Below, one piece after another: positions 3,551 through 54,257 of a DNA stretch of 64,000 nt. The position numbers and the translations under genes are program-made. The notes beneath the pieces are model-generated. The model did not search any database. It was not told the DNA's origin and saw only the letters and a program-made list of their open reading frames with translations. Source of the DNA: Elusimicrobia bacterium GWA2_61_42 (GTDB lineage: Bacteria; Elusimicrobiota; Elusimicrobia; Elusimicrobiales; UBA9959). Where the stretch lies: assembly GCA_001799615.1 (NCBI GenBank), contig MGTU01000021.1, positions 27,268 to 91,267 on the forward strand. The letters are read 5' to 3'. Positions within the stretch are counted from its first letter, which is position 1. Every line of letters begins with the position of its first letter.

Positions 3551-3551
3551 C

Positions 3552-5240: not shown

Positions 5241-5266
5241 TATTTAATACAATCATTTAAGTAAAT

Positions 5267-7192: not shown

Positions 7193-8972
7193 AGTTCTGT
7201 GCGCGGCTCTGGTCTTCCTGGCCGCCTTTTTCGCTTACGCCAACTCTGTAAATCCCACTTTTCATTGGGAGGACGAGTATCTGGTCAGGGACAATGTGCA
7301 TATAAGGCGGCTGACCAACCTGCCCGCCTTTTTCCGCCCCGGCTATATAAACGTGTATGAATCCGGGGCGGGCCACAGGTACAGGCCGCTGCGCACGGTA
7401 ACGCTGGCGCTGGATTACGCGCTCTGGAAGGGGGACCCGCGCGGCTACCACCTCAGCAACGTGCTGCTGAACTGCGGCGCGGCGCTGATGTTCTGGCTTT
7501 TCTGCCTGGCCCTGACCGGCAACGGGCTGCTGGCGCTGCTGGCCGGGCTGCTGTTCGCGCTGCACCCGGCCCACGCGGAGTCCGTGGCCTGGGTTAAGAA
7601 CCGTTCCGACATACTTTGCGCGCTGTTCTACTTCGCCTCGGCCGCGGCTTTCGCTTTTTATGCCCGGCACGGCAAAAAAACCGCGCTGGCCGCCTCGGTC
7701 CTGCTGGCGGCGCCGGCTTTCCTGGCCAAGGAAATGGCCCTTACCCTGCCTTTTGCGCTGGCCCTGGCGCTGGTCTACTCCAACCTGGAGGCCGGCAAGG
7801 ACTGGAAGGAAAAATGGGAGGCTCTTGTGCCGTTCTTCGCCTTGCTGGCCGCCTATGTGGTTTTCAGGGAAACCGCCATGGCCGGCGGCCCGGCCGCGAT
7901 CGGCGCGGGGGCGGCCCCGCTGGCGCGCGCGCAGCTGCTGGCCGTGACGGCCGGGGAATACCTGAAGACGCTGCTGTGGCCGGTCACGCTTTCAATAGAC
8001 AGGGCGCTGCCGTCCGGAGGCGCCGCGGCGCTGCAATACGGCCTGGCGGCCGTTTTTATTGCCGGGGTTCCCGGCCTGTGGTTCTCTGGCCGGCGCAGGG
8101 GCGCCTTCTGGCTGCTGCTTTTCTGGGTGCTGTACGTGCCAATCTCCAACCTGGTGCTTATAGAGGGGCGGCCTTTCGCGGAGCAGCGCCTTTACCTGCC
8201 TTCGGCCGCTTTCTGCGCCTTTATAGCCTGGGCGCTGACCGAGCTGCCCCGGCCCGGCTCCCGCCTGGCGCGTGCCTCCCTCGGTTTCGCCTTGGCGTTG
8301 GGCCTTTTCTGGGGCGCCAGGGGGGCTTACCGCAACCTGGACTGGAAGAGCGAGGTCGGGTTGTGGCAGAAGACGGCGGCCTCAAGCCCGTCGGCGCGCG
8401 TTTACAATAACCTGGCCGTGGCGCTGCTGAGGGAGAACCGCTATGAAGAGGGCATCAGGAACGCGCAGGAGAGCCTGCGCCTGGACCCGGCTTTTGTGGA
8501 CGCGTGGAATACGCTGGGCGCTGGCTACCATGATCTGAAACTGTATGACAGGAGCATTTCGGCTTTTGAAAAGGCCGTTTATTTCTCCGACGGGCGGGCC
8601 TATAAGTCGGTGATGAACCTGGCCGCGCTGTACAGCCTGAAAGGGCGCTGGCAGGAGGCGCTGGCCGCCTATCAAAGCGTGCTGAAGACGGCCCCCTGGA
8701 TGGACGCCGCCTACTATAACATGGGCCTGGCGCTGGCCCAGCAGAAGCGGCCGGACGAGGCTTTGCGCGCCTTCTCAGAGGCTTTGGCGCTGAACCCCTA
8801 CAATGCGCAGGCTTACCTGATGATGGGCCGCATCCTGGACGAGAAAGGAGATAGAGCCGGCGCCGCGCGGGTCTATGCCGACCTGCTCAGGATAGAGCCG
8901 GGCAACCAGCAGGCCTCGGCGTACCTTCAGGCTAACCCGCCAGGCATTGACTCGTCAAGGGCAACCCCTTGA
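7173..8972 (+). CDS. TMTC-like GT-C glycosyltransferase with C-terminal TPRs (copy 3)
   Basis: FHWED, YRPLR, LHPAHAESVAWVKNR, LAKEMA and FAEQRLYLPS motifs, followed by TPRs. Its stop codon lies inside the -35 hexamer of the next promoter. Confidence 0.85.
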   Translation: MKITENKVLCAALVFLAAFFAYANSVNPTFHWEDEYLVRDNVHIRRLTNLPAFFRPGYINVYESGAGHRYRPLRTVTLALDYALWKGDPRGYHLSNVLLNCGAALMFWLFCLALTGNGLLALLAGLLFALHPAHAESVAWVKNRSDILCALFYFASAAAFAFYARHGKKTALAASVLLAAPAFLAKEMALTLPFALALALVYSNLEAGKDWKEKWEALVPFFALLAAYVVFRETAMAGGPAAIGAGAAPLARAQLLAVTAGEYLKTLLWPVTLSIDRALPSGGAAALQYGLAAVFIAGVPGLWFSGRRRGAFWLLLFWVLYVPISNLVLIEGRPFAEQRLYLPSAAFCAFIAWALTELPRPGSRLARASLGFALALGLFWGARGAYRNLDWKSEVGLWQKTAASSPSARVYNNLAVALLRENRYEEGIRNAQESLRLDPAFVDAWNTLGAGYHDLKLYDRSISAFEKAVYFSDGRAYKSVMNLAALYSLKGRWQEALAAYQSVLKTAPWMDAAYYNMGLALAQQKRPDEALRAFSEALALNPYNAQAYLMMGRILDEKGDRAGAARVYADLLRIEPGNQQASAYLQANPPGIDSSRATP

Positions 8973-8996
8973 CAAAGCCGGATCTTCTGCTATAAT
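8947..8996 (+). promoter_or_regulatory. Sigma70 promoter with upstream palindromic operator (copy 1)
   Basis: TTGACA 8969-8974, 16-nt spacer, TGc-TATAAT 8991-8996. Upstream TTGAC-tc-GTCAA (8947-8958) and inverted repeat GTCAAGGG-caac-CCCTTGAC (8954-8973). Confidence 0.8.
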
Positions 8997-9007
8997 ATGA
9001 TTGCAGC

Positions 9008-9165
9008 GCGGTGTGGTTGCGGTGCGGTAGTGTTTGGTTGCGGTGCGGTTGCGGTGCCCCGCTCTTTTGGCGCAGCGTAGTGCGGCGTAGTGCGGTTAAG
9101 TTGCGGTCGCAGACAGACTCGGTGCGGTGTAGGCTGCGCGGTGCAGGTTGGTGACAGCGTGCGGT
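9008..9165 (+). repeat. G/T-rich degenerate (T)GCGGT pentamer array in the 5' leader
   Basis: About 11 GCGGT copies counted by eye, e.g. at 9008, 9019, 9024, 9040, 9045, 9051, 9092, 9103, 9124, 9138 and 9161. Strongly strand-biased and A-poor. Confidence 0.8.
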
Positions 9166-9187
9166 GTTTGTCCCAAAAGAGCGGGGC
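9056..9187. repeat. Perfect 15-bp inverted repeat enclosing 102 nt
   Basis: GCCCCGCTCTTTTGG (9056-9070) and CCAAAAGAGCGGGGC (9173-9187). Confidence 0.9.
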
Positions 9188-9198
9188 GTTTCTTTAAG

Positions 9199-9277
9199 TA
9201 TCCGACAATAGCAAAGCCGGCCAAAGCCGGCGGCGCAAAGCCGAGGGCCCAAGGGGGTTGCCTGGCTGCCGAAGATC
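9199..9277 (+). ncRNA. GEMM-I (c-di-GMP-I class) riboswitch aptamer, A20 variant (candidate 3',3'-cGAMP sensor), copy 1
   Basis: CGACAAT-A-GCAAA, P2 GCCGGC-caaa-GCCGGC, GGCGCAAAGCC junction, P3, and 3' GGCTGCCGAA, matching GEMM-I core motifs. The base equivalent to Vc2 position 20 is A9210. Confidence 0.88.
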
Positions 9278-9280
9278 AAT

Positions 9281-9499
9281 ATGAAAGAGCGGTTCTACGC
9301 CCTCTGTTGCATATTTTTAAGTCCCGTTGCGGCTTGCGCCGTAGCGGCTTTTTTATTGGCTGACAGTTTAAAAATAGTTTTCCCGCTTTGTAACCTTTCC
9401 GTAACATTATTTATATATTATAATAAGATGGCACTGAACGTCCCGGCAATGGAAGGAGCACTCCTGTCTGGTCGTTCGTCGTCGTTTGTAAAAAACTGA
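9281..9499 (+). CDS. Putative leader ORF (72 aa; internal ATG 9428 gives 23 aa) abutting the giant gene
   Basis: Starts 3 nt after the aptamer, spans the terminator and ends TGA directly before the giant-gene ATG, in the same frame. Coding status is uncertain. Confidence 0.35.
   Translation: MKERFYALCCIFLSPVAACAVAAFLLADSLKIVFPLCNLSVTLFIYYNKMALNVPAMEGALLSGRSSSFVKN
9324..9354 (+). terminator. Intrinsic terminator, likely expression platform of riboswitch 1
   Basis: 10-bp stem CCGTTGCGGC-ttgc-GCCGTAGCGG (2 G-U pairs) followed by C and T6. Confidence 0.8.
9389..9421 (+). promoter_or_regulatory. Direct-repeat box TGTAAC-N5-CGTAAC plus -10 element (candidate internal promoter of the giant gene)
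   Basis: GTAAC at 9390 and 9401 (11-bp period). TATTAT 9416-9421 lies 10 nt after the second box; TATAAT also occurs at 9419-9424. Confidence 0.55.
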
Positions 9500-12400
9500 A
9501 TGGCGCTAAAAGGTAAGGATAAAGCGAAAAGTTTTGCGACCCGGCTGGCCCGGGCCGCGGCGCTTTGCTTTTTCTCCCTGACCGCGCTGCTGCTCCCCCA
9601 GGCCGAACTTTACGCCGCCGACTACGAATGGGGCGTGAAATACGCCATGTACGAGCTGCACGGCCGCAACTGGGGGTCCACGGCCGCCAGGACCACCATA
9701 GCTTTCCGCTTCACGGCCAAATACGACGGCACCGTGGACGAAATGAACATGATAGTGGGCCGCGCCCCCAACGCCAACCAGTCCATGCGCATCGGCCTGG
9801 CCTCCTCCCTGGGCGCCAACGCCGGGGCCCAGACCTTCCTGGCCTACGCGGACGTGAACCAGACCGGCGGCAATTCCGGCTACGCCTACTGGCAGGTGCA
9901 GGCCACCAGCGGCACCCCGGTAAACGCCGGCCAGGACTATTACCTGATCATGCGCCCTAACGCCATGACCAGCAACTCGGCCCTTCAGGCCGGCACGATG
10001 TTCGGCTATTCCAACGCCGACACGAAGGACGCGGCCGGCACCAACCTTATCTATCCTGACGGCGTTGCTGACAATAACCTGCAGGTCTATTACTCGAGGA
10101 GCAGCGTGGAGCCCTTCTCCCAGGTGCCCAACGCCATGCCCACCTTCGTCATCCGTTACGCCAACGAGGGGGCGGGCAACAGGTACCAGGGGCAGCCCTA
10201 TGGCGCCTTCCCCGTCAGTTCCGACGAAGCCCTGTCGACGGCAGAAGGCGGTATAAACACCGCCGTGCCCAGCTCTCTGGCGAACGTGCTGACCACCGAG
10301 AGCAATATTTACGGCTGGCGGGGCGTGGGCTATTACTTCACCGCCGACGCCGCTACCAGGAACATCGTAAAGGCCAAGATCTTCCTGCAGAAAGTGGGCA
10401 CCCCGGTGGACAAACTGAATGTGAGGGTGATCCGCGCCGCGCCTCCTTACGCGGTGGTCCTGGACACCACCGTTTACGCCGGGGCGGCGGACATCACCAC
10501 TACCTGGGGCTGGCAGCCGGCGGCCGGCAAATCGTTCCCGGGCGGCGTCTTTACCCCGGGGCTTTCCTATTACGTCTATTTCTTCTCCAGCGGCAGCCTT
10601 AACGGCAACCACTACCGCGTTTCGCTGATGGACCCCAAGGACTACGGCGGCGCCACGGCCGCCGGCGCCAACCTGGTCACCGCCAACGGCACGGCCGACT
10701 ATTACGTGGCCAACGCGGACGTCAGGAATTTCGCCGGCTTCGCCCGTCCTTACGCCAATACCTACGGCGACATCCCCATAGCGCTTACCTGCGACAACGA
10801 CCCGCCCGAAGTGGTGGTCACGCAGCCGCTCAATAACTCGGCGCGCAAGCTCATGGCGCTGATAGAGGGCACGGCCTATGATAATTATTACATCAGGGCC
10901 GGCGGCGTGCAGGTCTCCATCAAGAACATCACCACCACCAAGGTCTGGGACGGCGCCGGCTGGGTGGACGGCGAAGTTAACTGGCGTCCGACCACCGCCT
11001 TCTCGCCCAGCGAAGGGGCCGTCATCAACTGGTCCTACCCGATGACCTGGGTGCACAACAATAAGTACGAGATCAATACCAAGGTTGTGGACAGCGTGGG
11101 CAACTACGAAGGCAGCTGGTCTACCACCACTTTCTTCTTCGACGAGTACAAGCCTCCGCCCAACGAAGTGCCCGATTCCACCATGACCTTCCCGTCCAAC
11201 GGCATCTTCGTCAGCGCGCTCGACACTATCAGTGGCGTCGCGACCGACAACTCGCCCAACGGCAGGATCAGCCTGGTGAAGTGGATGATGTGGAAACTCG
11301 GCTCCTACTGGGGCGACGACAAGCTGTGGCACGCGGGCCTGCCGCCGGCCAACGTGGATACCACGTGGCTTAACTCCGACGACGGCTCCGGCTCCTACAC
11401 GGTGACCTGGCATGAGTACTTCGGCAGCGGCCAGATCCCGGACCCCGGCCAGATGGACACCGGCACCACCTATTATATAGCCGCCAGGGCCGAGGACAGC
11501 GTGGTGGGCCCGACCGGCGCTTACGATAAGAACAAGGAAGTGGTGCGGTCCACGTTCACTTTCTACTGGGACGCGGTGCCGCCCACCTCGGCCATCACCT
11601 ACCCGCAGAACAGCGGCGTGGCCGGCACCTCCCCCGTTTTCTACGGCACTTATTTCGACCAGCACGCCGGGATGTCCCCGGCCAGGGGCGCCGCCGTCAA
11701 GGTAAAACTTTACGACAAGACCGCCCAGCTCTGGTATCACGCCACCGGCTGGGACCCGGACGAGCCCACCCTCCTGGAGATGCCCGAAGCCGCCGTCTGG
11801 GCTTCTTCCTGGACTTATTCCCCGCCGTCCGGGCTGACCGGGGCTCACGAGTACCTGCTGGTGTCGATAGCCAAGGACGCCACGCAGCCCGGCAATTACC
11901 AGAGCAGTTTCGTCCTGGGTACTTCTTCCAATAACTTCGTCTGCGATAACCTGAACCCCGTCACTTCCATAGGCGTCCCCAACACGTCTTTCCGCAACCA
12001 GCTGGTCTCCATATCGGGCGCGGCGCAGGATTACCCGCAGCCCGGGCAGCTGAGCCGGGTGGAGATAGAGATAGTTCACCCGGCCGACACCCCGGCTTTC
12101 GCCTGGTCCGGCACGGCCTGGCTGCCCATTGTCGAGGATAATTTCAGCACCTATACTTATGTTTCAGGCGGCTACCCGACCTGGTCGTATACCCCCGTGG
12201 GCATAGGCTGGACCGAAAGCATCAAGTACCGCGTAAGGGCCAGGGCGCGCGATAACATAGGCAATATAGACCCGCTGTTCACGCTGGGTGTCAACGAGCG
12301 CCAGTTCCGCTATGACGTCTCCTTCCCTACCACAGCGGTCAATGTGCTGGTAGAGGACGGCGTGGAGCTGGCCACCCAGACGGTAAACAAGCTGCACGAC

Positions 12401-44974: not shown

Positions 44975-45080
44975 AGCGCGCCGGGGGGAGGCGGGGGCCT
45001 GCCTGCAAGGTTGTTAGTAAGGATATATAGGGCTGATCAACACCTTGGCCAGCGGTCCAAAACCATGTTTGGGGCCGGCC

Positions 45081-45130
45081 TTGACATGTCAAGGGGGTGG
45101 CCTTGACAAACCAGTTCTATCTGCTATAAT
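45081..45130 (+). promoter_or_regulatory. Sigma70 promoter with upstream palindromic operator (copy 2)
   Basis: TTGACA 45103-45108, 16-nt spacer, TGc-TATAAT 45125-45130. TTGAC-at-GTCAA 45081-45092 with the same 22-nt offset to the -35 as copy 1. Confidence 0.8.
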
Positions 45131-45146
45131 ATTAATGCCGTAAATC

Positions 45147-45163
45147 TGTAACGAGTTTGTAAC
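45147..45163 (+). promoter_or_regulatory. TGTAAC-N5-TGTAAC direct repeat (OmpR/PhoB-family, WalR-like box)
   Basis: TGTAAC-gagtt-TGTAAC, lying between the promoter and riboswitch 2. Confidence 0.6.
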
Positions 45164-45171
45164 GCCGTATT

Positions 45172-45254
45172 GTTACGATAATAGCAAAGCCGGTGAAAGC
45201 CGGCGGCGCAAAGTCAAGACCCGCTAAGTGAGCGGGGGTCAGACTACCGAAAAC
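45172..45254 (+). ncRNA. GEMM-I riboswitch aptamer, A20 variant (candidate 3',3'-cGAMP sensor), copy 2
   Basis: CGATAAT-A-GCAAA, P2 GCCGGT-GAAA-GCCGGC (GNRA loop), GGCGCAAAGTC, P3 CCGCT/AGCGG, and 3' GACTACCGAAA. The position-20 equivalent is A45183. Confidence 0.88.
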
Positions 45255-45255
45255 G

Positions 45256-46872
45256 ATGAAACGCATTCTTGCTGATGCTTTTGCCCCCTTGGCTATATGG
45301 GCTTCTTTGAAGCGTGTAATACGCTTCAGCCCGGTCATGGGGCTTTTTATTGCGTTTTCGGCGGCTTCGGCCCTGGCCCAGAGCGGCGGCCAGCCCGGGG
45401 CTTTCATGTCCTACGGCGCCGGCGCCAGGTCCCTCGGTATGGGCGGCGCTTTCTTCGCGGTGGCCGACGACGCCTCCGCCTCTTACTGGAACCCCGCCGC
45501 CCTCACCCTGCTGGAGCGCAAAGAATTCACCGCCATGCAGGCCACCCTCTTCGAAGACACCACGCTTAATTTCTTCACCTACGCGCATCCCACCACCACC
45601 AAGGGCACCTGGGCGATCAGCATGACCCAGCTTAAGTCCGTGGGCTTCGAGAAGATCTCCATCACCGCCAATCCGGCCGGCGACGAGATCGTGGACATCA
45701 AGACCGAGGGCAGCTTCGACAGCGTGGAGCAGGCCATGGCCTTCTCCTGGGGCCGCGACGTCTCCGATAAGCTCGCTTTCGGCGTGATGGCCAAGAACAT
45801 CACCCGCTCCCTGGACACCTCCGTCGACTCCTTCAAGGCCATCGACATCGCCATGCTGCAGAAGTTCTCCAAAACCTACCGCGCGGCCATCGGCATACAG
45901 AACGTGTTCTCCATGGCTTCCGGAGATACCGACGACAAGCTGCCCCTGACCATTAAATTCGGCCAAGCCCTGAGCCTCTTCAAAGGGGCCCTGGTCTTCG
46001 GTTTCGATATCGCCAAGCCCCAGAACTCCGCCACCAACTGGCGCTTCGGCGGCGAATACTGGCTGATGTACTGGAGCGCGCTGCGCTTCGGCGTGATGGG
46101 CACCCCCGCCATCCAGGAAGCCGATTTCGGCCTGGGCATCAAGTATAAGAACCTCGGCTTCGACATCTCCCAGGGCGTGCACGCGCTGGGCTCCACCACC
46201 CGCTTTTCCGTCACGCTGCGCATGGGCCAGTCCAACAAGAGCAAGCACGACCGCGAGGTCCGCGAGATCGTCCGCCAGGCCCTGCAGTACTTCAAGTCCG
46301 GCTACTTCACCCGCGCCATGGAGAAGCTGCGCAGCGCCATGGACGCCGACCCCGGCAACGCCGAGATCCGCCGCATGGTGACCCGCCTGCAGGGCGCCAT
46401 CGACTACGTGCCCGACGCCACCGGCGGCGAGGAAGTGCCTACCCTGACCCGCCGCGGCATCATCGCCTACGTGGACGGCAAAGACCTGCGCGCCTCGGTC
46501 AACGTGCTGCGCCACGCTTTCAACAAGGACCCCAAGAACGACCGCCTGCTCTCCCTGCTCAACATGGTGGAGAAAGAGGCCAATGTGAGCGAGCTGACCC
46601 GCAAGCCCGAGGGTCCCGAGATCTTCACCTACATAGACCAGCGCACCTATGACGCCCGCCAGTCCATCTACGACGGCAAATACGACCTGGCCATGAAGCG
46701 CGCTCAGGACATCCTGGACCTCGAGCCCAACAACGAGACCGCCCTGGAGATCATGGGCAGCGCCTTCTACCTGATGGACCAGAAAGAGAAAGCCAAGGTC
46801 ATCTGGGAGCGCGTGGTGGAGATCAACCCCAATAACTCCATAGTGAAGAACTTCCTCAAGCAGGTGCGTTAA
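45256..46872 (+). CDS. PorV/PorQ-family (UPF0164, FadL-like) outer-membrane barrel with C-terminal TPR region
   Basis: Signal peptide ending ASALA-Q; hallmark GAGARSLGMGGAF-x-AVADDASASYWNPA; alternating beta-strands to about STTRFSVTLRM; TPR helices after. Confidence 0.85.
   Translation: MKRILADAFAPLAIWASLKRVIRFSPVMGLFIAFSAASALAQSGGQPGAFMSYGAGARSLGMGGAFFAVADDASASYWNPAALTLLERKEFTAMQATLFEDTTLNFFTYAHPTTTKGTWAISMTQLKSVGFEKISITANPAGDEIVDIKTEGSFDSVEQAMAFSWGRDVSDKLAFGVMAKNITRSLDTSVDSFKAIDIAMLQKFSKTYRAAIGIQNVFSMASGDTDDKLPLTIKFGQALSLFKGALVFGFDIAKPQNSATNWRFGGEYWLMYWSALRFGVMGTPAIQEADFGLGIKYKNLGFDISQGVHALGSTTRFSVTLRMGQSNKSKHDREVREIVRQALQYFKSGYFTRAMEKLRSAMDADPGNAEIRRMVTRLQGAIDYVPDATGGEEVPTLTRRGIIAYVDGKDLRASVNVLRHAFNKDPKNDRLLSLLNMVEKEANVSELTRKPEGPEIFTYIDQRTYDARQSIYDGKYDLAMKRAQDILDLEPNNETALEIMGSAFYLMDQKEKAKVIWERVVEINPNNSIVKNFLKQVR
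45308..45348 (+). terminator. Two adjacent hairpins plus U-tract inside the porV signal-peptide coding region (possible expression platform of riboswitch 2)
   Basis: TGAAGCGT-gtaat-ACGCTTCA (8 bp), then AGCCC-ggtcatg-GGGCT-TTTT. The second stem is weak. Confidence 0.4.
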
Positions 46873-46883
46873 GCACCAGCGCA

Positions 46884-47014
46884 GGGCGCGGGCCGGGTCG
46901 GGTTAGCAAAACCCTGCCGGAGCCCGACGCTTGCGTAAGCGCGGAGGGCGAGGCGGGGAGTGGCGAGCACGGTGTGCGAGACCACGTTTTTGCGTTCCGA
47001 CCCGGCCTGCGCCC
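46884..47014. other. Highly structured intergenic element (REP/MITE-like or ncRNA)
   Basis: 18-nt arms GGGCGCGGGCCGGGTCGG and CCGACCCGGCCTGCGCCC (1 G-U pair). Nested stems GCAAAA/TTTTGC, CCCTGCC/GGCGGGG, GCTT/AAGC, GTGG/CCAC and GCAC/GTGC. Confidence 0.55.
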
Positions 47015-47041
47015 GGAGCGGAATTAAAACTTGAACTTTTT

Positions 47042-47074
47042 TGAAACATTCCTGTAATAAGGTAAAGATAGAAT
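47042..47074 (+). promoter_or_regulatory. Direct-repeat box TGAAAC-N5-TGTAAT plus -10 TAGAAT
   Basis: Boxes at 47042 and 47053 (11-bp period). TAGAAT 47069-47074 lies 10 nt after the second box. Confidence 0.5.
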
Positions 47075-47083
47075 AATATTGTC

Positions 47084-49033
47084 ATGCGTAAACCCGCGCT
47101 TATCTTAATTTTGCTGGCCCTGGCCGCCTTCGGGGCCCAGGCCCAGACCACCATGCCGGCCGTAGCCGACGGCATGAGCTCGTCTTTGATGGAGCGCCAG
47201 GACTCCCTGCGCCGGGAAACCGAGACCAAGATAAAGAACGAGATCCTGGACCCGATACTGGGCCCCGCCAAATCCTTCGTGTTCGCGGACGTCGAGCTGG
47301 AGGTCATCTCCAAGAAAGCCGAACAGAACAAAGAAGGCATCGGCATCATACAGAAGTACAAGGAAAAAGGCTCCGGCCAGGGCGGCGGGGGCGATACCGA
47401 TTTCATCCTGCCCGGCATTCCCAAGCCCAAGTCGGTGCTGGGCGGGGACAACAAGCGGCCGGAGGCGGCCTCGGGCCAGCAGGCCCAGCAGGCCAAGGGC
47501 GTGCAGGAGATCCGCTACGGCCTGGAGACCGAGATCACCCGCTTCCAGCTGACGGTCATCCACGACGACACTCTTTCCAAGGAAGCGGTAAAGCTCGCCC
47601 GCGAGCGGGTGGACGATTTCCTGATCCCCTACAAGATCCGCAAGAAGGACGCCCCCACGGTGGTCTTCAAGCCCACCAGGTTCAACGTGGTCAACCCGCT
47701 GGACGACCTGAAGCGGCCCGGCGTGTACCTGCCGTTGCTTTACGCGCTGCTTTTCCTTATACTGCTATTGTTCCTCTTCGGCCCGCTCTGGGGCTTCTTC
47801 CGCAAATATATCAAGGCGCTGCTGGCCAAGCCCGGCGCCGAGGTCAATATAGAGGATAAGAGGGAGGAAGGCGGGGGCGGCGGCGGCGAGGAGGAGGGCA
47901 AGGAAGAGACCGAGGGCCACCAGAGCATCGATATGAATTTCCTGCAGAAGGAAGCCGAGAAGAAAGAAGAAGAGGACGACCTTATGAAGAAATTTGAGCC
48001 CTTTACCTACCTCAACGAGGAAAACCTCAAGCGGCTGATCTACCTGTTCCTGCTCCGCAAAGAGGACCCGTGGGTGATAGCCGTGGTGCTCAGCTATATC
48101 AAGCCGGACCTGGCCCGCCAGGCTTTGTCCATGCTGCCGATAGAAATGCAGTCCCGCGTGGCCCTGGAGGCGCTGACCGTGCGCCAGGCCACCCGCGAGC
48201 AGATAGACGCCATAGACAAGGATATCCGCGAGAACGTGGATTTCGTGATGGGCGGCATAGAGCGCCTGGCCAAGATGCTGGACGATTCCGACCCGGCGAC
48301 CCGCAAGAATATCATCGAATACCTCAAGACGCAGAAGCCCGACATCTACGAAAAGGTCAAGCGCATCGTGCTGATGTTCGAGGACATCACGGGTTTCCCC
48401 GACCGCGACATGCAGGTCATCATCAGGAGCCTGTCCAACGAGGACATCGCCCGCGCCGTGGCCAAGGCGGACCCGGCCATCGTCAACAAGTTCTTCACCA
48501 ACATGTCGCAGGGCGCCGTCAACGCCATAAAAGAAATAATGGAGTATTCCGGCGAGGTCACGCCGGCCCTGCAGGACGAGGCCCAGATGAAGATCCTGGA
48601 CGCCGTCAAGGCTTTGGAGGCGGAAGGCAAGATCAACGTGCGCCAGGGCAATACGCAGGAGGTCTATATCATCGACGGGGGGGAGATGTCCTCCGCGGAC
48701 GAGCGCAAGCGCAAATTCGACAGCATGTCCGCGCCCAGGGAAGAAGCGGCCGCGGGCCCTACCGCGGAGCAGGCCGCCCAGGCGCAGCAGTACCTGTCCG
48801 CCGGCGTGGACCTTTATAACCAGGGCAAACTGCCGGAAGCGCTGCAGTACCTGGAATACGCCTCCTCCCAGAACCCCGGCGACGCGTCCACCTGGCAGTA
48901 CCTGGGCACCGTCTATTACGCCCAGCAGCGCGTGGACGAGGCCGTGGCGGCCTACGAGAAATACGCCTCGCTTTCGGGCGACCCGGCCGCGACGGAGTGG
49001 CTGGCCGGCTTCAAGGCCCAGGTAGGTCGCTAG
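47084..49033 (+). CDS. FliF(RBM3-like)-TM-FliG(M,C)-TPR fusion protein with signal peptide
   Basis: Signal peptide to AQA. FliF-like periplasmic block (EILDPILGPAKSFVFADVEL...LPGIP...EITRFQLTVIHD...LSKEAV). TM about 47718-47800. FliG-M (FEPFTYL...EDPWVIAVVLSYI, EHPQ-like) and FliG-C (GGIERLAKML...MFEDI...NMSQ...EAQMKI...LEAEGKI). C-terminal TPR. Confidence 0.8.
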   Translation: MRKPALILILLALAAFGAQAQTTMPAVADGMSSSLMERQDSLRRETETKIKNEILDPILGPAKSFVFADVELEVISKKAEQNKEGIGIIQKYKEKGSGQGGGGDTDFILPGIPKPKSVLGGDNKRPEAASGQQAQQAKGVQEIRYGLETEITRFQLTVIHDDTLSKEAVKLARERVDDFLIPYKIRKKDAPTVVFKPTRFNVVNPLDDLKRPGVYLPLLYALLFLILLLFLFGPLWGFFRKYIKALLAKPGAEVNIEDKREEGGGGGGEEEGKEETEGHQSIDMNFLQKEAEKKEEEDDLMKKFEPFTYLNEENLKRLIYLFLLRKEDPWVIAVVLSYIKPDLARQALSMLPIEMQSRVALEALTVRQATREQIDAIDKDIRENVDFVMGGIERLAKMLDDSDPATRKNIIEYLKTQKPDIYEKVKRIVLMFEDITGFPDRDMQVIIRSLSNEDIARAVAKADPAIVNKFFTNMSQGAVNAIKEIMEYSGEVTPALQDEAQMKILDAVKALEAEGKINVRQGNTQEVYIIDGGEMSSADERKRKFDSMSAPREEAAAGPTAEQAAQAQQYLSAGVDLYNQGKLPEALQYLEYASSQNPGDASTWQYLGTVYYAQQRVDEAVAAYEKYASLSGDPAATEWLAGFKAQVGR

Positions 49034-49035
49034 GA

Positions 49036-49084
49036 ATTAACATTTGTGTAACTTAATTGAAACCCGCTTCCTTTAGAATATAAA
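49036..49084 (+). promoter_or_regulatory. Triple 11-bp-period box (TTAAC/GTAAC/GAAAC) plus -10
   Basis: Pentamers at 49037, 49048 and 49059; TAGAAT 49074-49079 lies 10 nt after the last. An alternative reading is TTGAAA-16-TATAAA. Confidence 0.5.
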
Positions 49085-49112
49085 GGTATAGAAAACTCAG
49101 CCGGAAACACAT

Positions 49113-51431
49113 ATGGACGACAGGGATAAAAAAATTTCAAAGCCCGGGATGCCTCCGCTTCCTCCGGGCATGCTTAAGCCCGGCGCGCCCCCGCCCCCGA
49201 TGGGCGGCAAGCCTTCTTTGCCCCCTATGCCCCAGGGCGGCTTCGGCGGAGCCCCCGGCGGCTTCCCGCAGTTCGGCCAGCCCCAGCAGCCCGCTCAGCC
49301 CGTAAAGGACTCTTCCGCTGAAGAGGCCAGGAAAATACAGGAAGAGAAGGACAAGCTGGAGAAAAAGATCACGGACATGGAGAAACTCCTGTCCCAGGAG
49401 AAGGAAAAGGCGCTGCTGGCCACCCTTAAGAACCAGCAGGACGAGGCCCTTTCTTCCCGCGTGGAGTCCTCGCTTAAAGATATACAGGAGAAGATGCGCC
49501 GCGACCGCCGCGACCACGAGGTCGAGGAGGAGCGCCTTACCCTCAAATCCAAGATCAAGGAAATGGAAACCCGCCTGTCCCAGGAGCGCGAGACCTGGAT
49601 GCAGACGCTCAAGAACCAGATGTCGGAGCGCGAGACCCAGGGCCGCGACGTGGAAGGGCATTTCATCCACCGCCTCCAGGAGATGGAGCGCCGCTGGCTG
49701 GACGAAAAGGCCCAGTGGCAGAAAGAGATAGCTTCGCGCGAAGCGGTCATCAGCTCGCTCAAGTACGCCGATACCAAGCTGCGCGAGACCGAGGACGAGT
49801 TCCGCAAGGTTTCCATGGAGAAGTCCATGCTTGAGCGCGACGCCGCCAAGCTTAAGGACGAGGTGGCCCGCGCCGAGCGCGAGAAGGCCTCCATAGAGTC
49901 CTATATAAGGGTGATCCCCGAGAAGGAGCGCGAGCTGGCGGAGCTGAAATCGGACAACGTGGTGCTGCGCTCCCGCGAGGCCGCCGCCCACAGCGAGGCC
50001 AAGCTGCGGGACGAGAAGAACAATTTCGAGCTGGAGAAGCTGCAGAAGGAGATAGGCCGGCTGCAGTCCGATATCGGCTCCATCTCCGACCGCAAGAACG
50101 CCGAAAAGAACGAGGAGCTGAAAAAGCTCCAGATGCGTTTCGAGTTCCAGCTGCAGGAGAAGGAAAAGACCATCGCCGACGTTTCGGGCGAGAAAGTCCG
50201 CGCCATTTCGGAACTGGTCAAGATAAAAGGCTTTATAGGCAGGGTACAGGCCATCAACGCCGTGCTGGAGAAAGAGCGCGGCCACCTCAAGCTGGAGAAG
50301 ATGCAGCTGGCCCAGAATATGGCCGCCCAGCTCGAAGAGATCAAGCGCCTGAAAGCCGAAGGCGACGGCCTCAAGGCCGCCCACCAGGGCGAGCTGGAGG
50401 CTATGGCCGCCAGTATGCGCGCCGAGATAGACCGCGTGAAGAACGGCTACGCCGCCGAGATGGCCCGCAAGCACGCCGAAGAGACCGCCGAGCTGGTACG
50501 CGCCCAGCAGGAAGAAATTTCCAGGATCTCGGCCGCCAGGCAGAACGAACTGGCTGCCGCCGCGGCCATCGCCCGCGAAGCCGCGGACAGGACCGTGGCC
50601 GCCGGCAAGGAAGCCGCGGACAGGGCGGTGAGCGCCGCCCGCGAAGCCGCGGAGAAGACCGTGGCCGAGCGCCAGGCTGAATTCGACGCCCGCCTGTCCC
50701 AGCTGCGCAGCAAATACGAAAATTCCGCCGAGGACGAGAAGAACTCGCTCCGGCGCCAGCTGGAGGGGGAATATACCTCCCAGCTTAAGGAAGCCCGCGA
50801 AGCCGCGGCCGCCGCGCAGGACGCCGCCCTTAAATACGAACTCGAGAACCGCCGCCTTGTCACGATCTCCCGGGACGTCGAGGCCGCCATCGCCGGCAGG
50901 GCGAAGGAATACGAGGCCCGCGTAGCCCGCGCCGAGGCCGAAGCCGCCAGGCAGGAAAGCTCCGCCGCCGCCGCCGCCACCCAGAAAGCGGAAGCGGAAA
51001 AATACGCCCACGCCGCGGAATCGGACCGCCAGCGCCTTGGCGCCGAGGCGGCCGCGCTGCGCGAGCAGGCCTCCGTGCTGGCCGCGCAGAAGACCGCCTC
51101 CGAAGGCGAGGCCGCCAGGCTGGCCGCCGAGCTCAAGCTTCAGGCCGAACACCTCAAGGCCGAAAGCGAGAACCGCGCCCGTTTCGAATCCGAGCTGCTT
51201 TTCCTCAAGCAGAAGATACAGCAGATGGAGTTCCAGGCCCAGGAAAATACCGCCGCGCTGGACGCGGAACGCGCCAACTTCCAGTGCCTGCAGGCTTCCG
51301 CCGGGGAGCAGAGCGCGGCCTGTGCCGCCCAGGCGGCCGAACTCTCGGCCGAGCTGGAGCGCTACAAAGCGATGGAAAACTCCCTGGCCGACAGGCTTAA
51401 ATGGGCCATCAAGGGCAAAAAATCCGAGTAA
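49113..51431 (+). CDS. Long cytoplasmic coiled-coil protein with Pro/Gly-rich N-terminus
   Basis: N-terminal PGMPPLPPGM...PQFGQPQQP, then about 700 aa of E/K/R/A/L heptad-type sequence. No signal peptide or TM. Confidence 0.8.
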   Translation: MDDRDKKISKPGMPPLPPGMLKPGAPPPPMGGKPSLPPMPQGGFGGAPGGFPQFGQPQQPAQPVKDSSAEEARKIQEEKDKLEKKITDMEKLLSQEKEKALLATLKNQQDEALSSRVESSLKDIQEKMRRDRRDHEVEEERLTLKSKIKEMETRLSQERETWMQTLKNQMSERETQGRDVEGHFIHRLQEMERRWLDEKAQWQKEIASREAVISSLKYADTKLRETEDEFRKVSMEKSMLERDAAKLKDEVARAEREKASIESYIRVIPEKERELAELKSDNVVLRSREAAAHSEAKLRDEKNNFELEKLQKEIGRLQSDIGSISDRKNAEKNEELKKLQMRFEFQLQEKEKTIADVSGEKVRAISELVKIKGFIGRVQAINAVLEKERGHLKLEKMQLAQNMAAQLEEIKRLKAEGDGLKAAHQGELEAMAASMRAEIDRVKNGYAAEMARKHAEETAELVRAQQEEISRISAARQNELAAAAAIAREAADRTVAAGKEAADRAVSAAREAAEKTVAERQAEFDARLSQLRSKYENSAEDEKNSLRRQLEGEYTSQLKEAREAAAAAQDAALKYELENRRLVTISRDVEAAIAGRAKEYEARVARAEAEAARQESSAAAAATQKAEAEKYAHAAESDRQRLGAEAAALREQASVLAAQKTASEGEAARLAAELKLQAEHLKAESENRARFESELLFLKQKIQQMEFQAQENTAALDAERANFQCLQASAGEQSAACAAQAAELSAELERYKAMENSLADRLKWAIKGKKSE
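50571..50669 (+). repeat. 3 x 33-bp (11-residue) tandem repeat within the coiled-coil gene
   Basis: AREAADRTVAA / GKEAADRAVSA / AREAAEKTVAE. Confidence 0.8.
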
Positions 51432-51536
51432 CCGCGGGTTACAGGGTCTTGAAGGAGGGGCGCGGGGATAAAAGTCCTTTCTGCGGCCCCGCTTCCCGAC
51501 TCCGTAACTCCGTGACTTATTAGTATAATTATTCAA

Positions 51537-51761
51537 ATGATAAAGCTCGAAAAACTCAACGGCACGATCGTGGTGGTCAACGCCGAACTCATAGAGACCA
51601 TCGAGGCCGCCCCCGATACCGTGCTGAACCTGGCGACGGGCAACAGGTTCATCGTCAAGGACTCGGTGGATTCGGTCATCGCCAAGGTGGTGGAGTATAA
51701 AAAAGTGGTTTACTCCGAGCGGAAATGCGTAAACCCGTTCGAGGGCTTTGAGAAGCGGTAG
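51537..51761 (+). CDS. flbD: FlbD/SwrD-family protein
   Basis: MIKLEKLNG...VNAELIETIEAAPDTVLNLATG...VKDSV, the family signature, directly upstream of motA. Confidence 0.88.
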   Translation: MIKLEKLNGTIVVVNAELIETIEAAPDTVLNLATGNRFIVKDSVDSVIAKVVEYKKVVYSERKCVNPFEGFEKR

Positions 51762-51778
51762 CTGCCGGAGACACAAAT

Positions 51779-52567
51779 ATGGATATAGCGACATTTACCG
51801 GGATCATAGTTTTCATGGGCTTCGTTTTCGGGGCCATCTACCTCGGCGAGGGCATAGCGGGCTTCAAGCCTTTCATCAACGCCGAAGCCTTCCTGATGGT
51901 CATGGGCGGCACTTTCTGCGCCCTGCTAGTCAATTTCCCGTTGTCCTCCGTCATCGGCGTGACCAAAGTGCTTAAGAAAGTGCTTACCTCGAAAGGCGAG
52001 GATACTTCCAAACTGGTTTCCACCTTCGTGTCTCTTTCCCAGAAGGCCAAGAAAGAGGGCTTCCTGGCCCTTGAAGCCGACGCCAAGGCCATCGATAACG
52101 ATTTCCTCAAGCGCGGCGTGCAGCTGGTCATCGACGGCGCGGACCACGAGTTCATCCGCAACATGCTCGAGACCGAGATCGACTTTATCCGCGAGCGCCA
52201 CAAGGCGGGCCGCGAGATCTTCAACGCCCTGGGCACCTACGCCCCGGCTTTCGGCATCATCGGCACCGTGCTGGGCATGATCATGATGTTGTCCTCCATC
52301 GACGACGTGGCGCAGGTGCCGCGCCGCATGGCGCTGGCCCTGGCGGCCGCGTTCTACGGCCTGGGCTCGGGCTACTGGCTTTTCATGCCCATGGCCGGCA
52401 AGCTCAAGCACCGCTCGGAAGAAGAACTTTTCGTTAAAGAGATCATCATCCGCGGCGTGCTGCTGCTGCAGAGCGGCGCCACCCCCAGCGTGGTGGAAGC
52501 CAACCTCAAGGCCTACCTGGAGCCCGACAAGCGCAAGACCGTGACCAAAGAGGCCCCGGCCGCCTGA
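51779..52567 (+). CDS. motA: MotA stator subunit
   Basis: MDIAT-x2-G; MVMGGT; AKKEGFLALE (R90/E98-equivalent region); FLKRGVQLVIDG; YAPAFGIIGTVLGMI; FMPMAGKL. Confidence 0.93.
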   Translation: MDIATFTGIIVFMGFVFGAIYLGEGIAGFKPFINAEAFLMVMGGTFCALLVNFPLSSVIGVTKVLKKVLTSKGEDTSKLVSTFVSLSQKAKKEGFLALEADAKAIDNDFLKRGVQLVIDGADHEFIRNMLETEIDFIRERHKAGREIFNALGTYAPAFGIIGTVLGMIMMLSSIDDVAQVPRRMALALAAAFYGLGSGYWLFMPMAGKLKHRSEEELFVKEIIIRGVLLLQSGATPSVVEANLKAYLEPDKRKTVTKEAPAA

Positions 52568-52626
52568 CGGAAGGGATAGCGCGGTAAGCGGAGCAAGCCG
52601 CTTAAAGGAAGCGAGGACCTGAATTT

Positions 52627-53415
52627 ATGCGGGGAAGAGTAAAAGGCATGATACCGGAGGACGATAAAAGGGTTTCCCCCATGGGAGAGCCCGCGCCCCC
52701 ATGGATGGTCAATTACGCCGACCTCATGACGGAAATGGTGTGTTTCTTCGTCATCCTCTACGCGCTCAGCGCCGCCCTCAACAAGGACATGCAGAAAGCG
52801 CAGCAGGAAGTGCAGGACATGATCAAGGAGGGCAAGATGTCCGGCCAGGTGGCCATGGACAAAGAGGGCATGCGCATAACCCTCGAGGAACAGAGCCAGA
52901 TAGCTTTTTTCGAGAGCGGCAAAGCCGACCTGACGGACCAGATGCGGGTGCAGATGGATAAGCTGGCCCCGGTGCTGCGCAAGCTTTCCGAAAAGCACGA
53001 CATCATCGTGGAGGGGCATACCGACAATATCCCCATAGCCACCAAGCAGTACGCCTCCAACTGGGAGCTTTCCTCGGCGCGCGCCACCAGCGTGGTCAAG
53101 TTCCTGCTGGGGTCCGATTTCAAGCCCAAGCGCCTGGCCGCCGTAGGTTACGGCGAGAACCACCCTATCGTGCCGAACGACAGCGAAACCAGCAGGCGCA
53201 AGAACCGGCGCGTGGTGTTCTTCATAAAGAACAATCCCTATCCCGAGGCCTCCCCGGCGACGGGTCCGCCCGCGGTGCTTAAACCGGGCGAAGGGGCCCC
53301 GGCCGCGGACGCGCAGCCGCCCGCACCCCTGGAGAACGCCCCGGCGGAAGAGATCCAGGCGGCGGAAGAACCTCTGCCCGCGGAAGAACCGGCTCCGGCC
53401 GAAGAGGGGCAGTGA
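52627..53415 (+). CDS. motB: MotB stator subunit
   Basis: W-x-V-x-YADLMT-x3-CFF TM with the conserved ion-binding Asp (codon 52720-52722). OmpA-like peptidoglycan-binding domain VEGHTDN...NWELSSARA...VGYGE...NRRV. Confidence 0.93.
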   Translation: MRGRVKGMIPEDDKRVSPMGEPAPPWMVNYADLMTEMVCFFVILYALSAALNKDMQKAQQEVQDMIKEGKMSGQVAMDKEGMRITLEEQSQIAFFESGKADLTDQMRVQMDKLAPVLRKLSEKHDIIVEGHTDNIPIATKQYASNWELSSARATSVVKFLLGSDFKPKRLAAVGYGENHPIVPNDSETSRRKNRRVVFFIKNNPYPEASPATGPPAVLKPGEGAPAADAQPPAPLENAPAEEIQAAEEPLPAEEPAPAEEGQ

Positions 53416-53437
53416 CGAACTCGCAACGGTGAATCAC

Positions 53438-54199
53438 ATGAAAAAGATCAAGACCGGTTTAAAACTTTCGCTGCTGTTCCTGCTGGCGCAGACGCTGGCC
53501 GGCTGCGGCGGTTTCAAGAGCCTTAAAGTGGTGGACTTCACGGACCAGCGCGTGGGCGACCTCTCGCTGACCAAGAAAGTTACCGGCAAAAAAGAATTCC
53601 TGTTCTTCTCCACCACCAAGATGGGGATGTTCCTGGACGGCAATATCCAGGGCGTGATAACCGATTACCAGGGCAACCCTATAGAGGGCGTCACCGTAAA
53701 GGTGCAGCCCGACGCCGGCAAGTCCAAGACCGGCGCGGGTGAGGCGGCCGGCGAATACGAGGGGGGGCCCGAAGAGAACGCCAACGCCGTCATCAACCTT
53801 TCTTTCGCGCCAGGCATCAGCGATACCATGGGCCTTTACAAGATACATTTCTCGCTGCCGGTGGTGGACAAAGAGGTGGACGTGCGCGGTAAACTGGTCT
53901 ATAACCCCGGCTGGGACCAGCAGAAGATGAACCTGGGCAAGGCCTACGAACCGCAGCAGAAAGAATCCCCTTTCAGGCTTTACTACAGCATGGACACCGG
54001 CTTCCTGGCTTTCGCCGAGGGCGTGCGCAAGATCATCGTGCAGCCGGTCGGGGAAGGCCGCGGCCGCATGCAGGCGCTGCCGGGCTCCAAGGGCCCGGAA
54101 CCCGCCAAGCCGGCCGCCGGGACCCCCGCCGAGGGCGCCCCCGCCGGCGGCAACCAGGCCGAGGAAGACCTGTTCAAAGGCTTCGATTTCGGCCAATAA
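53438..54199 (+). CDS. Lipoprotein with carboxypeptidase-regulatory/transthyretin-like beta-sandwich
   Basis: Lipobox LAGC after a K-rich n-region; IQGVITDYQGNPIEGVTVKV motif. Last gene before a strong terminator. A GTG at 53429 is an alternative start. Confidence 0.75.
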   Translation: MKKIKTGLKLSLLFLLAQTLAGCGGFKSLKVVDFTDQRVGDLSLTKKVTGKKEFLFFSTTKMGMFLDGNIQGVITDYQGNPIEGVTVKVQPDAGKSKTGAGEAAGEYEGGPEENANAVINLSFAPGISDTMGLYKIHFSLPVVDKEVDVRGKLVYNPGWDQQKMNLGKAYEPQQKESPFRLYYSMDTGFLAFAEGVRKIIVQPVGEGRGRMQALPGSKGPEPAKPAAGTPAEGAPAGGNQAEEDLFKGFDFGQ

Positions 54200-54229
54200 A
54201 CTGTACCGGAGGTTCAACCTCCGGACGCG

Positions 54230-54257
54230 AAAAAGAGGGCTCAGGCCCTCTTTTTTT
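54230..54257. terminator. Intrinsic (bidirectional-type) terminator ending the motor operon
   Basis: AAAAAGAGGGC-tcag-GCCCTCTTTTTTT, preceded by hairpin CCGGAGGT-tca-ACCTCCGG (54206-54224). Confidence 0.85.

Follow-up and report, generated by a model that had tools for sequence, protein, structure and literature searches.

A candidate non-flagellar FliG/MotAB motor linked to a PorV-family barrel and a giant surface protein in Elusimicrobia

Introduction

To our knowledge, torque generation by FliG and MotAB is found only in flagella, and the other 5:2 motors that we know of (Ton, Tol, GldLM, Agl and Zorya) work with different partners. Here, we analyze a locus in which parts of the flagellar motor core lie in one operon with an outer-membrane barrel of the PorV family, next to a gene for a giant repetitive protein. 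It is located in a stretch of 64,000 nucleotides (nt) of Elusimicrobia bacterium GWA2_61_42 (contig C21, MGTU01000021.1, positions 27268-91267; hereafter, the window), whose genome comprises 2.95 Mb in 34 contigs and is 94.8% complete. The original prediction for this DNA listed eight genes on the same strand, and our open reading frame (ORF) listing and family scans found all of them on the forward strand: the giant gene, the barrel, a FliF-FliG fusion that we call the rotor protein, a coiled-coil protein, FlbD, MotA, MotB and a lipoprotein. The locus suggests an ion-driven machine, so far undescribed, that would act on a giant adhesin, and in the literature that we searched, neither the coupling of a FliG/MotAB module to PorV nor a natural FliF-FliG fusion in Elusimicrobia is described.

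The locus has in common with the flagellar motor core the middle and C-terminal domains of FliG with a conserved torque helix, a domain resembling ring-building motif 3 (RBM3) of FliF directly before a transmembrane (TM) helix, MotA, MotB with its plug, channel Asp and OmpA-like domain, and FlbD, and its order flbD-motA-motB is the one known from flagellar operons of Firmicutes and spirochaetes. In contrast to the flagellar core, FliF and FliG are a single polypeptide here, with a tetratricopeptide repeat (TPR) region added at the C-terminus, neither FlhA nor flagellin is found in the genome, and FliM and FliN are not apparent in the window. The operon partners also differ and include a PorV barrel together with a coiled-coil protein, a lipoprotein and a giant protein with a putative C-terminal domain (CTD) of the kind used in type IX secretion (T9SS).

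The other close comparison is with the T9SS and gliding machinery of Bacteroidota. Similarities include a barrel of the PorV family, cargo whose putative CTD resembles type A, a giant adhesin that is repetitive like SprB, a candidate for a distant SprA/Sov homologue, the implied use of a 5:2-type ion motor and the general arrangement of an inner-membrane motor acting on an outer-membrane cargo. In this regard, the T9SS is reported to require a proton-driven 5:2 motor (PMC8986121, PMC9127263). However, the motor here would be MotAB acting on FliG instead of GldLM, the phylum is Elusimicrobiota, PorV has a TPR arm and its gene is part of the motor operon, and the SprA-like protein is shorter (1813 aa). 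A related arrangement is that of type B CTD proteins and their cognate anchors, which are PorP/SprF-like, as in sprB-sprF (Gorasia et al. 2022, PMC9143113, cited in PMC12204202). In both cases, the gene for a large adhesin is immediately followed by that of its own barrel of the FadL/PorP/PorV family, but here the CTD resembles type A, the barrels are closer to PorV/PorQ, and a subset of them have a TPR arm and a private motor. By analogy, the locus is also similar to the Agl-Glt system of Myxococcus, which consists of a TolQR-type motor, periplasmic linkers, outer-membrane barrels and the CglB adhesin, and which likewise combines an inner-membrane ion motor, force transmission across the periplasm, an adhesin held at the outer membrane and a cytoplasmic coiled coil (AglZ). 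Nevertheless, there is no homology of parts with Agl-Glt beyond the 5:2 motor superfamily, and a FliG-type ring is found here instead of TonB-like linkers.

A conserved, multi-copy FliF-FliG/MotAB/FlbD module that occurs in a phylum mostly devoid of flagella, and that gene order and common c-di-GMP control associate with PorV barrels and giant adhesins, would represent an envelope machine of a new class. This has implications for the evolution of the flagellar motor, specifically for whether the rotor-stator core can work without an export gate and axial parts, as well as for the deployment or movement of very large adhesins outside Bacteroidota and for the form of T9SS-like sorting in deep-branching diderm phyla. 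As new elements, we report a census of five such modules in one genome, a statistic on the pairing of cargo and PorV genes, a near-exclusive association between the TPR arm and motors, a SprA-like candidate, a conserved riboswitch upstream of porV and two conserved short peptides.

The rotor protein

The rotor gene (47084-49033, +; coordinates without a contig name refer to the window) encodes 649 aa that match FliG_M (41.1 bits) and FliG_C (84.7 bits), together with a cytoplasmic TPR. Residues 305-527 align with the middle and C-terminal domains of T. maritima FliG (E 8e-31), and the MFxFEDI hinge of FliG is kept, while FliG_N gave no significant match, the single hit (17.6 bits, E 0.006; cut-off 25) coinciding with the FliG_M region. 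On the N-terminal side, a signal peptide and the single TM helix (212-248) delimit a periplasmic part for which an AlphaFold2 (AF2) model built on 21 orthologues predicts an alpha-beta-[insert]-beta-alpha-beta fold, with a helix at 35-59, a strand at 64-82, a disordered insert at 83-140 that contains a conserved LPGxPxPKS motif, a strand at 141-161, a helix at 166-179 and a strand at 192-198. This topology, with two strands of about 20 residues before the TM helix, is that of FliF RBM3 with its beta-collar. Foldseek searches with the model returned FliG (E 5e-10) and Salmonella MS-ring/RBM3 structures (8t8p, 6scn and 8ftf, E ~8e-3, probability 0.99-1.0).

Paralogues and homologues agree with this assignment. 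A paralogue encoded on contig C17 matches the Pfam family YscJ_FliF_C (48.6 bits) just before its TM helix, and PF08345, FliG_M and FliG_C occur together on 120 of 120 homologues of that paralogue among the matches listed. The original reading of the rotor as a FliF-FliG protein is thus borne out by the FliG_M and FliG_C scores, the RBM3 fold and the YscJ_FliF_C match of the paralogue. What the rotor lacks is the first TM helix of FliF, RBM1, RBM2 and FliG_N, and it is not a separate full-length FliF with two TM helices and RBM1-RBM2-RBM3 that binds FliG_N. RBM1 and RBM2 are the parts of FliF that surround the export gate. The covalent fusion replaces the joint between the C-terminus of FliF and the N-terminus of FliG.

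We also noted a 189-aa secreted protein (C9:64708-65277, +) that resembles only the RBM3-like part of the rotor (E 6e-14 with a home-made profile) and has neither a TM helix nor a FliG part.

The stator and its interface with the rotor

MotA (51779-52567, +) is a 262-aa protein of the flagellar type that scores 220-239 bits with the MotP, MotA and PomA models and has MotA and PomA as its best PDB matches (E ~1e-47 to 3.5e-49). It keeps the prolines of TM3 and TM4 and has Lys at the position of E. coli R90 and Glu at that of E98. MotB (52627-53415, +) contains the plug (MotB_plug, 46.5 bits) and OmpA-like (70.3 bits) domains, with the channel Asp read from the sequence within YADLMT, and FlbD (also called SwrD; 51537-51761, +), a small protein associated with the stator, matches PF06289 with 82.7 bits. 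In E. coli, the stator-rotor contacts are R90/D288-D289 and E98/R281 (PMC12505986). In the alignment of 21 rotor orthologues, the invariant residues of the FliG C-terminal domain cluster on the torque helix (K469, N473, S475 and E484), with K469 and E484 occupying the positions of E. coli K264 and D288. Judging from the aligned residues, only one of the two classic charge pairs between stator and rotor is retained. The identity of MotA between families is 72-87%, compared with only 35-47% for the rotor of the same families, and this argues for a working stator under strong selection.

The coiled-coil protein and the lipoprotein

Two further proteins of the operon have less obvious relatives. 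The gene downstream of the rotor (49113-51431, +) encodes 772 aa without any Pfam or NCBIfam family match, which we read by eye as a cytoplasmic coiled coil with a proline-rich N-terminus, no TM helix or signal peptide being seen by eye in the sequence. In some relatives, this gene abuts the rotor gene or overlaps it by a few bases. The protein may replace the C-ring or tie the ring to something cytoplasmic.

The lipoprotein (53429-54199, +) has an invariant lipobox cysteine (Cys26), followed by a beta-sandwich and a disordered Pro/Ala-rich linker. Its AF2 model, with a predicted local distance difference test (pLDDT) score of 66, shows the beta-sandwich, and a Foldseek search of this model against the PDB found no match, the best hit being transthyretin-like at low probability (E 0.24). 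The C-terminal peptide DLFKGFDFGQ (residues 245-256) is invariant in 34 orthologues, and it is possibly a short linear docking motif and a candidate ligand for a TPR. The operon is closed immediately downstream by an intrinsic terminator (54230-54257, +), which we read directly as AAAAAGAGGGC-tcag-GCCCTCTTTTTTT, with an 11-bp stem followed by a T-run, in agreement with the single strong terminator that had been predicted.

Absence of a flagellum and five motor modules in one genome

The original prediction left room for a flagellar gene set elsewhere in the genome that these genes would serve, but searches for FlhA (PF00771) and flagellin (PF00669) were negative in the 94.8%-complete genome and positive in control genomes. 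The only ORFs of the genome that bear FliG_C are five membrane-anchored FliF-FliG fusions, so there is no ordinary FliG, and the only copies of flagellar-type MotA and MotB sit in the same five modules. As had been predicted for the window itself, no genes for flagellar export, rod, hook or filament are found among its scanned ORFs. A true or vestigial flagellum was rejected on the basis of the missing FlhA, flagellin and ordinary FliG in this genome and of at least 68 genomes in which the fusion occurs without FlhA.

The census of modules, which combined tblastn, home-made hidden Markov models (HMMs) and Pfam, identified four sets of PorV/PorP, MotAB and FliF-FliG genes in addition to that of the window. 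The module at C17:8034-15728 comprises a 2348-aa protein, a PorV-TPR protein, a histidine kinase, MotA, the fusion, a coiled-coil protein and MotB, and the module at C29:22093-30084 has the same gene order. At C25:130772-135288, the fusion, MotA, two MotB and a TPR-only protein converge on a cluster of PorV and multiple adhesins. The module at C8:142249-154061 contains a PorP/SprF-like barrel with TPR, a histidine kinase, the fusion and a coiled-coil protein with HATPase_c, and MotAB, a kinase and two response regulators are located close by. Each of the five modules includes a barrel, either PorV-like or PorP/SprF-like, or else a TPR piece, and one of the paralogous barrels matches PorP_SprF with 40.4 bits. 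The HisKA/HATPase_c proteins are located at C17:9789-10727 and C8:144233-145543, and the presence of histidine kinases in the C17, C29 and C8 modules, together with response regulators in the last of them, suggests that two-component control replaces or adds to control by cyclic di-GMP (c-di-GMP). Presumably, there is one module per cargo or condition.

FlbD and the rotor TPR are both missing from the four modules located outside the window.

The giant protein, the PorV barrel and the pairing of cargo and barrel genes

The giant gene (9500-44974, +) encodes a protein of 11,824 aa with a signal peptide and about 50 Ig-like repeats of 120-135 aa between residues ~430 and ~7060 (Big_3_2, Big_13 and repeat map), in addition to further beta-rich regions. 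The giant ORF and its Ig repeats therefore stand as originally predicted, whereas its CTD is less certain. The last ~100 aa are similar to type A CTDs of the T9SS and to FlgD_ig, both below threshold (21.3 against a cut-off of 23 bits for TIGR04183, Por_Secre_tail, and 22 against 27 bits for PF13860), and our home-made CTD HMM gives 156 bits. The CTD of the giant protein is accordingly putative, being based on these sub-threshold scores and on a strong pairing of CTD and PorV genes in the genome, which is described below. Two other very large proteins of this genome look by eye like a bacterial alpha-2-macroglobulin and a lectin-type repeat protein.

The gene downstream of the giant one (45256-46872, +) encodes the PorV-family protein, whose predicted family membership was confirmed by NF033709 (105.9 bits, cut-off 90), with additional matches to TPR_19, TPR_14 and TPR_2. 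The barrel spans residues ~50-322 and is followed by a C-terminal TPR arm (residues ~340-535) that would be periplasmic. In total, the genome contains 19 PorV-like genes among ~2563 ORFs, and the CTD recurs on at least 13 of its proteins. For 9 of 13 CTD proteins, the immediate neighbor is a PorV-like gene, compared with ~0.2 by chance according to our own estimate, so that the placement of a PorV-like gene behind the gene of a CTD cargo appears to be a general rule for cargo and anchor in this genome.

Pairs of a large CTD cargo and a barrel-only PorV without a motor occur at least 9 times, for instance, at C7:78095-82774, C12:34123-44325, C23:14095-20848 and C18:2023-8051, and further ones at C28:132799-137443, C25:76233-80613 and C4:164460-169222. 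Such motorless pairs suggest that the motor adds something beyond the export and anchoring of its cargo. The size of the cargo does not predict linkage to a motor, since cargoes of 3064 and 4555 aa have plain PorV-like barrels and no adjacent motor while one of 2348 aa has a motor, and for this reason, we prefer actuation of the adhesin over its export as the role of the motor. The TPR arm, on the other hand, does track motor linkage. Matches to the TPR portion of the PorV profile are limited to the four barrels linked to motors and the TPR-only protein of the fifth module, apart from a partial match in one further copy, and the other 13 PorV-like proteins are barrel only. We therefore read the TPR arm as a putative coupling element.

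A SprA-like protein in the same genome

A T9SS-like sorting route is plausible in this organism, as judged from its gene content. A protein of 1813 aa encoded at C22:40368-45809 (-), of outer-membrane type and ending in TLTFQF, matches the SprA/Sov model TIGR04189 with an E-value of 1.1e-33 and 115.7 bits, which is below the equivalog cut-off of 200, and it has no Pfam match and no PDB sequence match. Its homologues are 48-83% identical across Elusimicrobia, every named one is annotated as a hypothetical protein, and one of them carries a precomputed SprA_N match. The gene lies beside lptF/lptG, both here and on a 1.6-Mb metagenome contig. As a proxy for PorK-type proteins, a crude search of the genome for the FGE-sulfatase motif gave only a lone 327-aa protein that has no PorLMN-like neighbors.

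Promoters and c-di-GMP riboswitches

The regulatory motifs that the original prediction described as shared are real, and they consist of two almost identical promoters, each followed by a c-di-GMP-I aptamer. Promoter 1 (8969-8996, +), which heads the giant-gene unit, was read directly as TTGACA, a 16-nt spacer and TGnTATAAT, and promoter 2 (45103-45130, +), found by promoter scan and direct reading, has the form TTGACA-16-TATAAT with the TG and matches 12 of 12 positions. Both are of the consensus sigma-70 type and share the box ccTTGACAAA...CTGCTATAATAT. The aptamers match RF01051, whose covariance model has a gathering score of 35, with 58.8 bits over the full model (1-87) for aptamer 1 (9200-9273, +) and 57.8 bits for aptamer 2 (45173-45251, +), the latter ending 4 nt before the porV start codon. 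On the 3′ side of aptamer 1, ViennaRNA predicts a terminator hairpin that would serve as the expression platform (9324-9355, +), with a 10-bp GC-rich stem followed by UUUUUU. For aptamer 2, a terminator scan and folds indicate a long terminator-like hairpin with a U-run (45283-45351, +) inside the first ~100 nt of the porV frame.

These features are not peculiar to this genome. Among the seven leaders that we folded, most have a comparable hairpin with a U-run. An aptamer upstream of porV is kept in six of six diverse orthologous loci (40-71 bits), whose rotor proteins are 42-87% identical to that of the window, and an AUG 4-5 nt downstream of the aptamer, the putative porV start codon, is conserved in the relatives. 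From these sequence features, we conclude that there are two transcription units, one with the giant gene alone and the other running from porV through the lipoprotein gene, each predicted to be gated by a c-di-GMP riboswitch, which suggests that the device belongs to the decision between attachment and movement. In the porV leader region (45256-45351), a second in-frame ATG (45337) falls within the loop of the riboswitch-2 hairpin, and control may be transcriptional, translational or both.

The leader of the giant gene contains, in addition, a G/U-rich and A-poor insert of ~185 nt between promoter 1 and riboswitch 1 (9003-9187, +, by direct reading), which is absent from the porV leader. It is made of reiterated GCGGU units, with GCGGTGCGGT-like copies at 9008, 9019, 9040 and 9119, and is flanked by a perfect inverted repeat of ~15 bp, gccccgctcttttgg ... 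cccaaaagagcggggc. This insert may provide an initial checkpoint, or a loading site that serves the processive transcription of a 35-kb gene.

Conservation of the locus in Elusimicrobiota

In a sample of 201 Elusimicrobiota genomes from 76 genera, the fusion is present in 73 genomes and 52 genera, and FlhA is present in only 5 genomes. One family, whose genomes are small (1.2-2.6 Mb, mostly 1.4-1.7 Mb), lacks the fusion, and the taxon-named homologues and loci, among the matches listed, are all from Elusimicrobia. One flagellated relative (G064) has FlhA with a nearby FliG-like frame of 335 aa and carries the fusion at a separate locus, which argues that the two are distinct.

Linkage of the giant and porV genes with the motor genes, on which the original prediction depended, is conserved. 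In 20 loci from ~15 families, the order is [CTD protein]-PorV/TPR-fusion-[optional protein]-coiled coil-FlbD-MotA-MotB-lipoprotein, where the optional protein has 1500-1900 aa and no recognizable family and is probably a coiled coil. From PorV to the lipoprotein, the order is near-invariant in a larger set of 80 species-representative loci, for which we counted, gene by gene, only those extending far enough. In 60 of 65 such loci, the gene immediately upstream of the rotor is porV, and downstream of the rotor we found the coiled-coil gene in 69/69, FlbD in 58/59, MotA in 54/55, MotB in 51/52 and the lipoprotein in 43/48. A CTD protein is encoded upstream of PorV in 39 of 61 loci.

Proposed machine and alternative explanations

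The reading that we favor, and to which we give roughly even chances, is that of a non-flagellar, ion-driven rotor and stator that uses the flagellar torque core and is coupled to a PorV barrel holding the CTD of a giant adhesin. The single-chain FliF(RBM3)-TM-FliG(M,C) protein would assemble into an inner-membrane ring, with an RBM3 ring and its beta-collar in the periplasm and a FliG ring in the cytoplasm. A MotA5B2 stator, helped by FlbD and fixed to the peptidoglycan through MotB, would conduct ions and push the helix of the FliG C-terminal domain, and the machine would operate without a type III export gate, rod, hook or filament, an absence that at the genome level concerns FlhA and flagellin only. 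Motion of the periplasmic collar might be passed to the TPR arm of PorV, perhaps through the lipoprotein of the operon. PorV, in turn, would hold the CTD of the 11,824-aa protein once this had crossed the outer membrane, probably through the SprA-like barrel, and the output would be mechanical work on the anchored adhesin, that is, moving, turning, tensioning or deploying it at the cell surface. A more ambitious version, which is tentative and which we regard as rather unlikely in its entirety, is a third kind of FliG/MotAB rotary organelle in which the one-protein FliF-FliG ring, spun by stators that are anchored to peptidoglycan, turns or drags a TPR-armed PorV and a single Ig fiber of ~12,000 residues under the direct control of c-di-GMP riboswitches. 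If true, it would provide a rotary or conveyor motion of adhesins for surface motility, active attachment and detachment, or a protein propeller, and a living example of a flagellar motor core that works without the type III export apparatus. The 649-aa ring protein, the TPR-armed PorV, the two conserved short peptides and the riboswitch are concrete targets for further work.

As a general motor for secretion, the module is less likely than as an actuator of adhesins, and we regard this alternative as rather unlikely. Under this explanation, MotAB and FliF-FliG would replace PorLM/GldLM and PorKN/GldKN and power CTD export through the SprA-like translocon, PorV would be only the usual cargo shuttle, and the adhesin would not be moved afterwards. 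The known need of the T9SS for a proton-driven 5:2 motor fits with this possibility, as do the distant SprA/Sov homologue, the ~19 genes of the PorV family and the 13 or more proteins with a CTD in this genome, and the fact that no PorKLMN-like gene row was seen, on the strength of the crude FGE-sulfatase motif search. However, most cargo-PorV pairs have neither an adjacent motor nor a TPR arm, cargo size is not predictive of a motor, and the SprA-like gene is unlinked to any motor module, lying beside lptF/lptG instead. An improbable alternative is that the motor is co-regulated with the adhesin and its PorV anchor under c-di-GMP control but is mechanically separate from them, with the motor acting in the envelope or in signaling, for instance as a sensor of surface contact or load or as a Tol-like maintenance motor. 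Flagellar stators are sensitive to load, histidine kinases and response regulators accompany paralogous modules, HATPase_c is present on the C8 coiled-coil protein, and the giant gene is missing beside the operon in about one-third of the loci, all of which would suit such a device. It is difficult to reconcile with the location of PorV inside the motor operon and behind its own riboswitch, a location conserved in 60 of 65 loci, with the association of the TPR arm with motor linkage, or with the barrel or TPR piece near all five modules.

Two further possibilities derive from the flagellar and MotAB-like character of the parts. That they are remnants of a true flagellum, or spare parts for one, would account for their type and for the flbD-motA-motB order, and a few Elusimicrobiota lineages do still have FlhA, but their high conservation, the five paralogues and an intact operon with its own regulation make this very improbable. 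The chance that we are looking at a Zorya-like anti-phage system, in which a MotAB-type motor works with long coiled-coil parts, is close to negligible. MotB matches ZorB models in PADLOC (E 3e-20) and the operon does encode a long coiled-coil protein, whereas MotA is a 262-aa flagellar-type protein without a tail, and FliG, FlbD and PorV are foreign to Zorya. A defense system of this kind was rejected on the PADLOC results, which for seven of the proteins gave no ZorA, ZorC or ZorD match and only the generic match between MotB and ZorB.

Several observations weigh against the actuated-adhesin machine that we favor. At the interface, two of the five classic charges of the torque helix are lost (R281 is Gly and R297 is Thr), and the D289 position, which is Glu in most orthologues, is Ile here. 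The EHPQ motif that binds FliM reads EDPW in the rotor, FliM and FliN, like rod and hook proteins, are not found among the scanned ORFs of the window (no genome-wide search was made for these), and we know of no precedent for a FliG ring without a C-ring. The structural basis is also modest, since the rotor model is mediocre (pLDDT 70, predicted template modelling score, pTM, 0.29) and the matches to FliF structures are weak by E-value (~8e-3). The ring, its rotation, contacts of the TPR arm with the rotor or the lipoprotein, and the display of the giant protein at the surface are all inferred, and it is mechanically unproven that an outer-membrane barrel can be dragged or turned by an inner-membrane rotor. 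Moreover, a giant or CTD gene is adjacent to the operon in no more than the 39 of 61 loci mentioned above, and the five motors could collectively serve all CTD cargoes as energizers of secretion. Finally, a locus of the flagellated relative (G064, L026) has the order fusion-FlbD-MotA-MotB without PorV upstream and is followed by a 1916-aa protein; this order may be an intermediate arrangement that informs us about the origin of the module.

Neighboring genes

On the 3′ side of the operon terminator are mnmA, ddl, pdxA and genes for a SurA-like peptidyl-prolyl isomerase (PPIase) and PBP1. On the 5′ side of the giant gene, the region 3-8972 (+) encodes two radical-SAM proteins, one of them with a GDSL lipase-like domain as a fusion partner, along with three TPR proteins, among them one that has a weak, sub-threshold match to a PMT_2-like glycosyltransferase. 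These radical-SAM and TPR proteins may modify the surface protein.

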